A DNA stretch of 58,523 bases from an uncultured Bdellovibrionales bacterium (GCA_965366815.1 CBDUGV010000004.1:1-58523), one strand, 5' to 3'; positions 10,579 through 55,520 are shown, numbered from the stretch's first letter. Program-made: numbers and translations. The notes: generated by a model not told the origin, from the letters alone.

Positions 10579-11385
10579 CTAGAGACTCACTTTCTCAACA
10601 GCAATGGTTCGAGTGAGCTCTAGAATGGGAACTATGGGAACTGCGGCCACAAGCAACATCAAACCAATCACACTGAGAAACACTGGAAAAACTACCGCAT
10701 TCTCTAGTTTCTTAACCCGGGCTTCAACCGATGTACGCCATTCGAGATGTGCATATTCACTCAGATTTCGTAGCGATGGGATGAGTTCCGCGCCCTCTCG
10801 CATGCTGATATCGAGATGTAGTAGTGTATGTTGCAACGAACTGTGGGGAACCGATTCGGCCAGTCTTTGGAGAGCGTGCTCAATGGGCGCACCACTCGCA
10901 CACTGCTGATACAACACTCTAAACAGTCGAACAACTGGGTTCGCCGAGTTACTGATCTCTTCCGAAGAAATCAATTTCTCAATCGCCGCGAAAACACTGA
11001 GACCCGAATCAACCGCCAAGATAAGTGCCTCAAGCGTCAAAGGGAGTCGAAAGAGTACCTCACGATAAAATCTAATCTCTCGCCAACGGAAATATCCAGC
11101 ACATACGTAGGGTACGATTACCAACCAAATCAACGTACCGTAAACGCTTCCGATCAACCCCGCAGAGAAATATCCAAAGCAAACCGCGAATACCCAGCAA
11201 ACACTACCGCACAGTGTGATCCAAAACCGTGCGCGGCGACGATCGAGCAAAGACATGAATCCCGCCCGCCCTAAGCGACTACTGAGCAATGCTACTTCAA
11301 TCTCATCGACTCTATGTGACGACTCCGAGTAAGCCTGTCCCATATCTTCAAGCCATTGCAGGCGCTTTCTGTCTTTCAGGCTCAT
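10579..11385 (-). CDS. tadC: Tad inner-membrane platform protein TadC (T2SS F family)
   Basis: LPLTLEALILAVDSGLS, GAELIPSLRNLS, C-terminal TM. ATG 11385 overlaps the tadB stop (ATGA). Confidence 0.82.
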   Translation of the reverse strand: MSLKDRKRLQWLEDMGQAYSESSHRVDEIEVALLSSRLGRAGFMSLLDRRRARFWITLCGSVCWVFAVCFGYFSAGLIGSVYGTLIWLVIVPYVCAGYFRWREIRFYREVLFRLPLTLEALILAVDSGLSVFAAIEKLISSEEISNSANPVVRLFRVLYQQCASGAPIEHALQRLAESVPHSSLQHTLLHLDISMREGAELIPSLRNLSEYAHLEWRTSVEARVKKLENAVVFPVFLSVIGLMLLVAAVPIVPILELTRTIAVEKVSL

Positions 11386-12248
11386 GGTGTAAAGGCACTC
11401 ATCCGCCGAAGCGTAAGATAACTCACAAGAATTAACAGCGAACCGCTCAGTGCAAGTATGCGAGCAGTCGGATGGTGAAACAGAGTAGTCCAATATTCGT
11501 TTGTTCGAAGCGCCACCATGCCGACCAGCGCCGGAGTCAGGCAGAGAAGTATGTGCGCAGTCGTTCGCATCGTTGCGGTGCTCACTCTGGCAGACTGCAC
11601 CAAGACCGCACGATCTCTTGAAACCCGAGCTAATCGCTGCAAGGTCGGTGAAAATCGGCCTCCGTTCTCCAGTACGAGCAAGAGACCTTGGCGAAACAGC
11701 ACTAAATCTGGTTGGTCAATGCTAGCAGCAAACTCAGCGAGGGCACGTTCCTTGGACACACCACTGCGGAGTTTCTCTAAGAGCAAGTCAGCCTCACGCC
11801 GAACCAGGTTTTCTCGTGGGAAGAACTGAACCGCTCGCTCGAGTGCAGCATACGGACTCAAGCCAGCTTTGAGACTCGCTGCCGTTGCAAGCACGACACT
11901 CGGATAGTCTTCGAGAAATCGATGCGCTCGCCGAGCGGCCAACCGGCGCAACCAAGCAATGCCCATGTAGAGAACAAGCAGAAATACAACCAAAGCTCCA
12001 AGTAAAGAAAACAATCTGATCGAGAATCCAGCACAAACACTGGCCACTAGGATGAGACTAGAGATGAATTCATACGGACTCTTGTCAACATCGGCTTGAA
12101 GGAGCAGGAGCGAGAGTTGCGACTGACTGCTTGTACTTCCTTCATCTCGGCAAGCGGTTGCCTCTTTGATCGAGGCATCGCGAGTATCAGCATGGGCGAG
12201 CCAAGTCATTCGTTGATAGTCAGTAGCTCTCTGAGTACGAAACATCAT
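11382..12248 (-). CDS. tadB: Tad inner-membrane platform protein TadB
   Basis: FLEDYP..VLATAASLKAGLS..AL, ENGGRFSPTLQRLA, C-terminal TMs; follows tadA. Confidence 0.85.
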   Translation of the reverse strand: MMFRTQRATDYQRMTWLAHADTRDASIKEATACRDEGSTSSQSQLSLLLLQADVDKSPYEFISSLILVASVCAGFSIRLFSLLGALVVFLLVLYMGIAWLRRLAARRAHRFLEDYPSVVLATAASLKAGLSPYAALERAVQFFPRENLVRREADLLLEKLRSGVSKERALAEFAASIDQPDLVLFRQGLLLVLENGGRFSPTLQRLARVSRDRAVLVQSARVSTATMRTTAHILLCLTPALVGMVALRTNEYWTTLFHHPTARILALSGSLLILVSYLTLRRMSAFTP

Positions 12249-13657
12249 CCACGTACCCGCTCAAACGCTCGCCCTTGCGGCTCAGTTCCGATTTGCATTT
12301 CTGTGCCCAAGGGAGGTAGCTCAAACCCCTGGGCTTCTAACTCTTTCGAGAACATTGAGATGCCACTTTCTCGTCGCCACACGGGCTCAGTAGAGGAATC
12401 TGATGGTCGGATAAAGGAAAATATGGGTGACACTTGCACTTCACCGTCGGTAGAACTATGAACCTCGAGTACTTGTAGAATTTTCCGCTCGCCACTCGTT
12501 GGATCAATTCCGAGAAAAACAACTACCGAGATTGCGTTACTAATCTGTCGACGTATGGTCGATATGGAAACACCCGATTGCGCACGAGACAAGAACAGTT
12601 CTAGTCGAGACAGTGCATCTCGTGCGCTTCGCGCATGGATCGTGGACATTCCCACATGCCCCGAGGAACAAACATCTATATACGCCTCGGCGGCTTCTGC
12701 ATCTCGCATTTCGCCCAGAATTACTCTGTTCATCGCCATCCGCATTCCGGCTCGAATTGCGTGAGCGGGGGCAATCCGTCCCGCACCCTCAGTGTTCGCG
12801 TCTCGAGTCAGGAGTGTCCGAGTAAACGGCCTATCCAGAACAATTTCATGAGTATCTTCGATTACCAGAATTGCTTGGTCGGACTCGATCTCGAGTGCGA
12901 GCGCCCGCACCAATGTTGTTTTTCCGGTACCAACTTCTCCTGCGATCAAGACCGAAGCGGCTCCTTTGTTAACTATGCCCGCAAGATACTCTAAAACTAT
13001 CCGCGGGCAGAGACGGAAACCAACTAGTCTTGTGAGCGAAACAAACTCATGTCTGGATATTCGCAGCGTGAGCATTGGACCAGAGTTTTCAGGAGAAAAT
13101 GACTCGTGCGTAACACAGGCTCTCACTTTCGAATCAATGCTCGCGTCAACTACCGGCGCGGCAAGAGTAGATGCTTTCCCTGCACGCTTGAGGAGATTCT
13201 CCACAAACGACACATAGCTTGAATGATCGGAGAACTTGAGATCTGTTTGGATATTCGTTCGACCTGTCTGAACGCTTATATCGTCGAACGATCTAATAAT
13301 GATATCGTTGATTTTGGGGTTCTCAACAAGTGGAGTCAGAATATCGTAGTTTGTCAGTGAAGCCGACAAGGCAGCAACCGCTGCATGCCGTTCATGGGCT
13401 GACAGCTCTTCGCCTTGGTTTTCTTCAACTTGATCTACGAACTCAGTTAGCTCAGCGTGATCGGGATCAATTGAAAATTCGTCATTTCGATGTCGCTCGA
13501 CGAGCCGACGTGCTTCATCGACTACATACTTTGCTGTTGGTGTAAGGTGAGTTGCGCACATCGTTTGACGGGTTCTGGAATACGATCGACCGAAATACTC
13601 CCTGCGGATTTCCCGAGCAGTGACTCGTCGAGCCTCGTTAGCCTTGCGACGATGCAT
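12245..13657 (-). CDS. tadA: Tad/Flp pilus assembly ATPase TadA/CpaF
   Basis: ENPKINDIII, Walker A GEVGTGKTT, Asp box EDTHE, Walker B VILGEMR, His box GHVGMSTIHA. Confidence 0.93.
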   Translation of the reverse strand: MHRRKANEARRVTAREIRREYFGRSYSRTRQTMCATHLTPTAKYVVDEARRLVERHRNDEFSIDPDHAELTEFVDQVEENQGEELSAHERHAAVAALSASLTNYDILTPLVENPKINDIIIRSFDDISVQTGRTNIQTDLKFSDHSSYVSFVENLLKRAGKASTLAAPVVDASIDSKVRACVTHESFSPENSGPMLTLRISRHEFVSLTRLVGFRLCPRIVLEYLAGIVNKGAASVLIAGEVGTGKTTLVRALALEIESDQAILVIEDTHEIVLDRPFTRTLLTRDANTEGAGRIAPAHAIRAGMRMAMNRVILGEMRDAEAAEAYIDVCSSGHVGMSTIHARSARDALSRLELFLSRAQSGVSISTIRRQISNAISVVVFLGIDPTSGERKILQVLEVHSSTDGEVQVSPIFSFIRPSDSSTEPVWRRESGISMFSKELEAQGFELPPLGTEMQIGTEPQGRAFERVRG

Positions 13658-54779: not shown

Positions 54780-54794
54780 TGCGAGTCTTACCCC

Positions 54795-55520
54795 TCACTC
54801 ATCAAAAGAGTTCTCGATATCCACAAATTCTCGCATCCGCCGAATGGCTCGCCGATGAACCCGTGACAACCCACTCTTATGGGCTCCATTCAAAACAGCA
54901 GACATTTGCGAAAAGCTCAGCTCTTCGTAGTACTTCAGAAAAATCACCTGTTGCTCTATTGGTGAGAGCTCGCGAATCATCGACTGCATTTGTCGATCAG
55001 ACTCTCGCTGTTCACAAATATATGAAGGACTTTGATCATCAAGATAGCTCAACTCACAGTCCGGCAATTGAGGAATTCCATGCACGACTACTCCAAGGGC
55101 TTCATGAACTTGATCATCTGCATAGAGTTCATCGTTCCAGCAGATGCTCTCAGAAGCGGTGTCATGCTCTGTTTCGGTCTTCTTTTCCTCTGCTCTCTTT
55201 CTCGGAGTTGGAATGAAACGCCGAAGAAGGTCAAACATCTCACCGCGAATCCGAAGGAAACTAAATGTTCTAAAGTTCGCTCCCTTTGAGGGATCGAAGC
55301 GATAGGCAGCGTCGCATAGTCCGAGGTACGCTGCCGCGACGATATCATCGTAATCAGTCGGCAGCGGTTGATGCTCAACGTAGAACCGCTTTGCCAACCT
55401 TCGCGCGTATTCCATGTGGTCGACAATATAACCCTCAATTTTCTCTCTGTGCATTGCCTCTTGCATTTGTTCCTCCGCTGGTCTCACCATCAGGAACTGA
55501 TCAATGCAAAGGCGTGCCAC
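54795..55520 (-). CDS. Sigma-70 family factor, FliA/WhiG-like
   Basis: DDIVAAAYLGLCDAAYRFDPSKGANFRTFSFLRIRGEMFDLLR (region 2); LSPIEQQVIFLKYYEELSFSQM (region 4). Confidence 0.88.
   Translation of the reverse strand: MARLCIDQFLMVRPAEEQMQEAMHREKIEGYIVDHMEYARRLAKRFYVEHQPLPTDYDDIVAAAYLGLCDAAYRFDPSKGANFRTFSFLRIRGEMFDLLRRFIPTPRKRAEEKKTETEHDTASESICWNDELYADDQVHEALGVVVHGIPQLPDCELSYLDDQSPSYICEQRESDRQMQSMIRELSPIEQQVIFLKYYEELSFSQMSAVLNGAHKSGLSRVHRRAIRRMREFVDIENSFDE

Follow-up and report, generated by a model that had tools for sequence, protein, structure and literature searches.

Here, we describe two gene clusters in a 58,523-nucleotide stretch of DNA from an uncultured Bdellovibrionales bacterium (GCA_965366815.1 CBDUGV010000004.1:1-58523), which is hereafter called the window. 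The first is a Tad pilus locus at 9758-16932 (Tad-1), and the second is a module of a secretion system of type III (T3SS) at 49947-55520 (T3SS-1), both on the minus strand. Our comparisons favor the view that Tad-1 and T3SS-1 are two separate, vertically inherited loci for envelope machines, which probably represent the dispersed twin of a duplicated Tad-T3SS unit. This assignment is based on the two sister pairs, TadA-1/TadA-2 and SctV-1/SctV-2, in gene trees, and on the physical fusion of the other Tad and T3SS pair of the same genome. An earlier note on the window had regarded the co-location of the two clusters as the toolkit of a predator-like bacterium, an interpretation that our analyses support in part.

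The genome containing the window (G000) comprises 4.5 Mb in 416 contigs and is 90% complete. About 55 major open reading frames (ORFs) of the window were annotated against Pfam and NCBIfam. The main comparison set consisted of G000 and 60 relatives (61 genomes), and the wider set was the GTDB phylum-level group, which contains only 124 species genomes of a single class in the searched collection. Distances and intact gene orders were taken from G027, a relative assembled in three contigs. The homologues of SctV-1 are labeled in NCBI as Bdellovibrionota, Bdellovibrionales, Oligoflexia, or Deltaproteobacteria bacterium, and the labels Bdellovibrionota and Oligoflexia among the relatives count in favor of the reading in the earlier note.

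The second pair in this genome, Tad-2 and T3SS-2, is fused. On contig C149 of G000, the genes tadZ-flp-cpaB-tadA-tadB-tadC are followed by a second gene for an export gate of the FHIPEP family, which is cut by the contig end. Coordinate comparison finds TadA-2 and FHIPEP-2 on one strand, with about 3 kb between them, in G000 and in at least 37 of the 60 relatives, and the adjacency was seen in the ORF maps of seven relatives (G027, G032, G034, G049, and G051-G053). In the mapped relatives, a 740-840-aa kinase-like/HEAT protein is encoded after FHIPEP, and genes for FHA and Ser/Thr-kinase proteins lie upstream. The block is intact in G027, where it occupies about 27 kb of the minus strand in the order sigma factor, sctU, sctT, sctS, sctR, sctQ, sctO, sctJ, two FHA/SctD-like genes, pseudokinase, sctV, tadC, tadB, tadA, cpaB, tadZ, and Ser/Thr kinase. 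Such a co-directional block occurs almost throughout the lineage, and contigs C6, C402, and C149 of G000 are pieces of it. C6 carries sctRSTU, sctQ, sctO, sctJ, a sigma factor gene, a TPR chaperone-like gene, and FHA-domain (SctD-like) genes. C402 (2200 nt) holds the N-terminal part of an FHA/SctD-like gene and the pseudokinase gene, and bridges C6 and C149. The link between Tad and T3SS suggested by the earlier note does exist in the genome, between Tad-2 and T3SS-2 on these three contigs and not between the two loci of the window. Literature searches for an FHIPEP gene inside a Tad cluster, or for T3SSs in Oligoflexia, Bdellovibrionota, or Silvanigrella, turned up no account of these systems.

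How are the fused pair and the window pair related? TadA-1 and TadA-2 are sisters with support values of 100/99, and stand apart both from the TadA/CpaF sequences sampled outside the lineage and from a third type within it. In the SctV/FlhA trees (87 and 54 sequences, with mainly gammaproteobacterial SctV and FlhA as the outside references), the SctV-1 type and the Tad-linked SctV-2 type are each monophyletic (100) and are mutual sisters (94/92). Both lie on the non-flagellar side, adjoining the sampled injectisome SctVs, and branch outside all of the sampled injectisome families, while the third FHIPEP paralogue of the lineage groups with the FlhA of E. coli and others. The two pairs are therefore alike as sister paralogues within one genome, and differ in their arrangement: Tad-2/T3SS-2 is fused, is associated with FHA and kinase genes, and shows no recognised needle-like gene among the compared ORFs, whereas the window copies are unlinked. 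Their conservation also differs. TadA-2 occurs in 116 of the 124 genomes (72 of the 73 high-quality ones) at 60-83% identity, as compared to the 41-62% identity of the TadA-1 orthologues, which were found in nearly all of the 60 relatives (among the matches listed). SctV-1 was matched in all 61 genomes. The co-distribution of the two window loci, which the earlier note had proposed as a check, is indeed observed; because both Tad-1 and T3SS-1 are near-universal in the lineage, it is uninformative and cannot discriminate between the readings.

The neighborhood of Tad-1 and T3SS-1 in the window is incidental, and alone provides no evidence for a joint function, because a long spacer of housekeeping genes separates them, the corresponding genes are far apart in G027, and T3SS genes are absent from the retrieved surroundings of Tad-1 in 13 relatives. 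The spacer is composed as follows.

18438-49877: spacer of about 32 kb with housekeeping and unrelated genes (Pfam), namely def, fmt, rpe, plsY, clpX, ileS, lspA, and genes for a DEAD helicase, an aminotransferase, and a DAHP synthase, in addition to ABC-2 transporter, MFS, and GT2 genes
27800-28567: HEAT protein, in the spacer
28587-31151: three glycine-zipper lipoproteins, in the spacer
36546-37949: WD40 protein, in the spacer

In G027, 457 kb separate sctV-1 (C1:1.394 Mb) from tadA-1 (C1:1.852 Mb), and the 14-16 kb retrieved around Tad-1 in each of 13 relatives contain no T3SS gene. By our own arithmetic, four Tad ATPase loci and five T3SS loci in 4.5 Mb would place at least one unrelated pair within 40 kb of each other in about three of ten genomes. 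The proximity that the earlier note had taken for one toolkit is not syntenic in relatives. The glycine-zipper lipoproteins and repeat proteins (HEAT, WD40, and TPR) cited in the same context are all present; they are generic envelope and scaffold proteins, and are uninformative about lifestyle.

A direct version of the toolkit idea would be that Tad-1 and T3SS-1 form one contact-dependent killing apparatus, with their proximity reflecting this function. In Myxococcus xanthus, the Tad-like Kil pilus works together with T3SS*, a needle-less and secretin-less T3SS (Seef 2021 PMC8460266; Herrou 2025 PMC12075869; review PMC12428579), and the co-occurrence of Kil and T3SS* is apparently restricted to the Cystobacterineae (review PMC12428579). 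This precedent (PMC12075869, PMC12428579), the Bdellovibrionota label of the lineage, and the physical fusion of Tad-2 and T3SS-2, whose sister paralogues are the window copies, all speak for such an apparatus. In contrast, the proximity is not kept and the loci are separated by the housekeeping genes, as described above. Moreover, while the KilF ATPase has an N-terminal FHA domain, TadA-1 contains only a T2SSE domain in Pfam, and it falls outside the clade of FHA-TadA proteins that holds the Myxococcota sequences. As the earlier note had stated, the window shows no FHA genes: Pfam searches of its major ORFs detected no such domain, and the Tad-1 locus also lacks a counterpart of the short secretin KilC. 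T3SS-1 has needle-like genes and is scattered over at least three loci, unlike the needle-less T3SS*, which is encoded in one large cluster. Considering these differences, we regard a single Kil/T3SS*-like killing apparatus in the window as unlikely.

The FHA-TadA clade does have members in this genome. Contig C128 (1-11694) encodes several Flp/TadE-type pilins (the longest with 689 aa), CpaB, a 588-aa FHA-TadA fusion, TadB, TadC, and an FHA protein, and contig C181 (6650-8164) encodes a second FHA-TadA (504 aa), beside an 843-aa gene with a kinase-like-looking N terminus. These two FHA-TadAs cluster with those from a Polyangiaceae metagenome-assembled genome (MAG) and a Myxococcota MAG. Judged by architecture and tree, C128 and C181 are the Kil-like systems of G000. 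The SctV and TadA trees, a kind of check proposed in the earlier note, place SctV-1 on the non-flagellar side and, within the sampled sequences, leave TadA-1 outside the Kil-type group.

Tad-1 is a compact, translationally coupled TadZ-Flp-CpaB-TadA-TadB-TadC core, bracketed by two paralogous proteins that resemble the N-terminal region of the GspE/PilB ATPases and have no Pfam match.

9758-10564, minus strand: GspE/PilB-N-like protein, 268 aa, without an ATPase domain, downstream of tadC; no Pfam match
10579-11493, minus strand: TadC-1 platform protein (PF00482 T2SSF, E 1.7e-8), with orthologues after TadB in 14 relatives
11382-12248, minus strand: TadB-1 platform protein (PF00482 T2SSF, E 1.1e-9)
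12245-13657, minus strand: TadA-1 ATPase of the CpaF type (PF00437, E 4e-27; TIGR03819, E 1.4e-48)
13638-14543, minus strand: CpaB/RcpC-1 (PF16976, E 3.5e-21)
14540-14725, minus strand: Flp-like pilin, 61 aa, with the sequence EEKG/SLALEQVLFIGAVVALSAGLLVFY and Glu at +5, at the same place in relatives
14706-16100, minus strand: TadZ/CpaE-like ATPase of the ParA/BcsQ type (PF06564, PF13614, PF01656)
16363-16932, minus strand: GspE-N-like paralogue, 189 aa, upstream of the operon (phmmer against the 268-aa ORF, E 3.7e-8); no Pfam match

The TadZ-like gene heads Tad-1 in every relative inspected. The processing site of the Flp-like ORF, G/SLALEQ, retains Glu at +5, while Gln replaces the usual Tyr of G/XXXXEY, and this ORF has no Pfam match. 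The 268-aa protein, a paralogue of the 189-aa ORF (phmmer E 5e-8), matches the N-terminal part of the GspE-N+REC protein that closes the Tad-1 loci in relatives. There, the bracketing GspE-N-like domain is part of one receiver-fused protein of 390-450 aa at the end of the operon (L124:17901-19145 in G027), and the window instead has a gene for a hybrid histidine kinase (8007-9833) after Tad-1. The description of Tad-1 as a reduced locus in the earlier note is correct, because the window ORFs include, besides the core genes, neither a secretin nor an A24 prepilin peptidase nor any of TadE/F/G. G000 encodes a single secretin (contig C76, beside pilMNOP-like genes) and a single A24 peptidase (contig C277). 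Tad-1 is also reduced relative to its kin: in other families it extends into TadG-like, TadE-like, and GspE-N+REC genes, while the family of the window (G000 and G004) lacks both minor-pilin genes.

A further comparison is with the type IVc Tad/Flp systems of Caulobacter and Aggregatibacter (CpaA-F/TadA-G, RcpABC). Tad-1 shares with them TadZ/CpaE, a candidate Flp-like pilin, CpaB/RcpC, TadA/CpaF, and TadB/TadC in one coupled operon. It differs from them in the absence of the RcpA/CpaC secretin, the TadV/CpaA peptidase, and the TadD pilotin, as well as in the Gln that replaces Tyr after Glu+5 of the pilin and in the ATPase-less GspE-N-like proteins around the operon; TadE/F/G are absent in the family of the window, and are present in relatives of other families.

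T3SS-1 consists of eight genes, for a sigma factor, SctJ, a split SctQ (two ORFs), two SctF-like proteins, SctV, and a TPR protein.

54795-55520, minus strand: FliA/WhiG-like (sigma-28-like) sigma factor, head of the module (TIGR02479, E 1.2e-27, below its cut-off)
53976-54779, minus strand: SctJ inner-membrane ring lipoprotein, 267 aa (PF01514, E 4e-10; TIGR02544, E 3e-18, below its cut-off)
53267-53986, minus strand: SctQ-N-like protein, 239 aa, placed by its position and by the fused ORFs in relatives; no Pfam or NCBIfam match
53043-53258, minus strand: 71-aa protein with the SpoA (SctQ C-terminal) domain (PF01052 FliMN_C, E 1.6e-7, above cut-off)
52674-52958, minus strand: SctF-like needle-family protein 1, 94 aa (cross-match with protein 2 in jackhmmer)
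52380-52664, minus strand: SctF-like needle-family protein 2, 94 aa (profile A1 against PrgI/MxiH; C terminus ...SN..(14)..IVRNFR)
50383-52374, minus strand: SctV-1, non-flagellar FHIPEP export gate (PF00771, 511 bits)
49947-50516, minus strand: TPR protein resembling PilW/PilF, lipobox-like at its N terminus, which closes the module (TPR families; TIGR02521 type_IV_pilW, E 5e-15)

The order sigma-sctJ-sctQ-needle-sctV-TPR is preserved in 30-37 of 39 loci of relatives. The sigma factor gene is kept upstream of sctJ wherever these loci extend that far, and the TPR gene directly follows sctV-1 in 37 of the 39. PilW/PilF-like TPR proteins are the pilotin type of type IV pilus secretins; no secretin gene belongs to T3SS-1 itself. 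Because a single SctQ ORF of about 270-330 aa often comprises both the 239-aa and the SpoA part in relatives, we read the two window ORFs as a split SctQ, in which the 239-aa protein would be the N-terminal part. SctV-1 scores 493 bits with hrcV and 454 bits with FlhA in NCBIfam, and its best match in the Protein Data Bank (PDB) is chain 7alw, a "Low calcium response protein" and SctV-type injectisome gate (E 8e-104). The earlier note had called this T3SS divergent; it is non-flagellar and atypical as stated, although the window holds only the eight-gene module and not a whole system. Scans of the 49-56 kb region for sigma-70 promoters and terminators remained at the chance level, and the sigma-28-type promoter pattern (TAAA-N13-17-CCGAT) occurs at a chance-level frequency, with no occurrence near Tad-1 or T3SS-1.

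The two 94-aa proteins are likely to be needle-like (SctF-like), in line with the earlier note, as judged from weak profile E-values, the C-terminal motif, and the gene context. They are paralogues of each other, and homologues of protein 1 are encoded immediately upstream of sctV-1 in the loci of 34 relatives. The alignment of the family (45 members) contains an invariant Asn within a C-terminal ...SN..(14)..I(I/V)xNxR motif. Among natural PDB chains, the family profile matches only PrgI and MxiH, weakly (E 9e-4 to 2e-2), with alignments that span the hairpin through the last residue. The AlphaFold2 model of protein 2 (pLDDT 80.7) shows a helical protein whose C-terminal helix is long. A Foldseek search with this model gave no significant match, with MxiH and PrgI appearing only among the matches with E>4, and neither 94-aa ORF matched a needle family in Pfam at E values up to 10.

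Could these T3SS genes be what is left of a flagellar export apparatus in decay? The FliA/WhiG-like sigma factor gene is adjoined by a gene for a 524-aa SRP54-type GTPase (55715-57289, plus strand), which is divergent from it, and by two tandem MotB/OmpA-like genes at the window edge (57296-58521). In addition, flagellar FlhA, FliP, FliI, FliF, FliG, and FliM were not found in G000 (phmmer with E. coli queries for FliF, FliG, and FliM). However, the true FlhA of the relatives groups with that of E. coli, while SctV-1 is non-flagellar, and the split between the two is fully supported. A flagellar T3SS combines an FlhA-clade gate with FliF, FliG, and FliM; the ring protein of T3SS-1 is a short lipoprotein, with the size of SctJ and not of FliF. 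The module is also intact, with its order kept, and the GTPase scores best as FtsY: we rejected its identification as FlhF, with 29 bits as compared to 153 bits for FtsY, both below the cut-offs (261 for FtsY). Several relatives possess a third, truly flagellar set, with a third FliP in G027, G014, G032, and G052, while G012 has only two FliP, two SctN, and two FHIPEP matches. The position of SctV-1 outside the FlhA clade rejects the flagellar remnant, which is hardly credible.

Where are the other components of T3SS-1? The window contains no sctRSTU, sctN, sctC, or sctD. G000 has a second sctRSTU set on contig C332, in addition to that on C6, and two sctN genes, one on C146 and one on C15, where a FliH/SctL-like gene accompanies it. 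In G027, sctRSTU-1 is located at C1:0.778 Mb, and the two sctN genes of the non-flagellar kind at 0.800 and 1.539 Mb. By elimination, T3SS-1 is spread over at least three loci, with its sctRSTU and sctN/L on other contigs. Directly after sctRSTU-1 in G027, there is a PAS-GAF histidine kinase gene (L152:5493-8330), and its homologue in G000 (C332:190-1017) is cut by the contig end. Both non-flagellar SctU proteins terminate no later than the NPTH autocleavage site, and lack the substrate-switch domain. The C332 copy (1041-1859, minus strand) ends with ...AVVVN and a stop codon, at the Asn preceding PTH in E. coli FlhB, and the C6 copy (41299-42054, minus strand) terminates earlier. The G027 orthologues (L152 and L151) are alike, and no separate ORF for the switch domain was seen. 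Finally, none of the secretin (PF00263) matches in G000, G027, G032, and G052 coincides with a mapped Tad or T3SS locus, and those in G027 are hundreds of kb away from these loci.

These features bear on the idea that the two window loci have independent functions, with T3SS-1 serving as an injectisome-like system against eukaryotic hosts (protists or animals), and Tad-1 as an ordinary pilus for adhesion or surface sensing. The non-flagellar clade of SctV-1 includes host-directed injectisomes, probable needle-family genes are present, Tad pili are generally adhesive (PMC12428579), and the loci are unlinked in relatives. The likeness to the Ysc and SPI-1/Mxi-Spa injectisomes further extends to the SctJ lipoprotein, SctQ with its SpoA domain, a probable SctF-like hairpin protein with the ...SN...IIxNxR C terminus, and SctRST and SctN/L in the genome. 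Nevertheless, no secretin lies beside any T3SS locus, the single secretin of G000 adjoins the pilMNOP-like genes, and SctU lacks the substrate-switch domain. T3SS-1 thus differs from the injectisomes in having no SctC secretin and an SctU that stops at the NPTH site, as well as in its own sigma-28-like factor, its dispersed genes, and the branching of SctV-1 beside SctV-2, outside the sampled families; SctD and a translocon were not recognised. Within the module, Pfam and NCBIfam annotation recognised no translocon or effector-like gene. Moreover, the other non-flagellar T3SS resides inside a Tad operon, which argues for a role at the bacterial envelope over that of a classical injectisome. 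We consider the independent, host-directed function to be distinctly unlikely.

We return to the duplicated Tad-T3SS unit. The most economical history would be an ancient duplication of this unit, followed by the dispersal of the window copy. Several points weigh against this scenario. The congruent sister pairs fit two independent duplications equally well. Because the outside sampling of TadA and SctV was small, and lacked M. xanthus (including KilF), Bradymonas, and Bdellovibrio, the term "sister" is valid only within the sequence set used, and the support of 94/92 for SctV-1 with SctV-2 is under the firm threshold of the tool. The needle assignment depends on weak profile E-values and context, and the sctRSTU and sctN sets were allotted to T3SS-1 or T3SS-2 by elimination. 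In addition, the contigs of G000 and G004 are short, so Tad-1 and T3SS-1 may yet be linked at the family level.

On the basis of the sequence comparisons, we propose the following functions for the two loci. In Tad-1, TadA-1 would power TadB and TadC for the assembly of the Flp-like pilin, with CpaB as a periplasmic ring and TadZ as a localiser. The locus has no secretin of its own, and would use the prepilin peptidase encoded elsewhere. T3SS-1 would serve as the module for ring, gate, and needle in a non-flagellar type III system with its own sigma-28-like factor. As the fused twin and the Kil/T3SS* of Myxococcus suggest by analogy, Tad-1 and T3SS-1 may still cooperate in a contact-dependent interaction with other cells.

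How far does the Myxococcus analogy extend? In both cases, a Tad-type machine and a secretin-less, atypical, non-flagellar T3SS reside in one genome of a predator-allied lineage, with the absence of a secretin common to T3SS* and T3SS-1. In addition, the Tad-2/T3SS-2 block includes FHA and Ser/Thr-kinase genes, just as Kil is accompanied by FHA genes. In contrast, the two systems are encoded apart in Myxococcus, whereas the paralogous pair is fused here. A bolder extension is that two Tad-T3SS hybrid machines arose from one ancestor, one of them still fused and under FHA and kinase control, the other (the window pair) dispersed, needle-bearing, and driven by its own sigma factor. Tad-1 and T3SS-1 would then still form a single apparatus without a secretin, with the Flp pilus and the SctF-like proteins acting as a joint device for export or contact; we offer this tentatively, as an improbable refinement. 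As drawn from co-location, the joint predator toolkit is unsupported as such, and it becomes plausible only indirectly, through the fused sister pair. Nothing found here demonstrates the predatory or host-associated contact lifestyle envisaged in the earlier note, and while the gene identities, their conservation, the missing synteny, the paralogue trees, and the fused twin are shown by the comparisons, the co-duplication, the cooperation, and any role in predation are what we infer.

What would the dispersed twin mean for this lineage? Predation by Myxococcus is the only studied case of cooperation between a Tad pilus and a type III system, and there the genes are apart and a physical complex is merely hypothesised. 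Within the lineage of 124 species-level genomes, two non-flagellar T3SS-like systems are retained alongside two sister Tad systems, and one pair is welded into one gene block. If the bolder extension is true, then the partnership of Tad and T3SS would be ancient, phylum-wide, and independent of the Myxococcota. The window module, with needle-like genes and without a secretin or the SctU switch domain, bears on the origin of injectisomes from flagella before the recruitment of the secretin, and on the question of whether Tad pili replace the missing outer-membrane parts.

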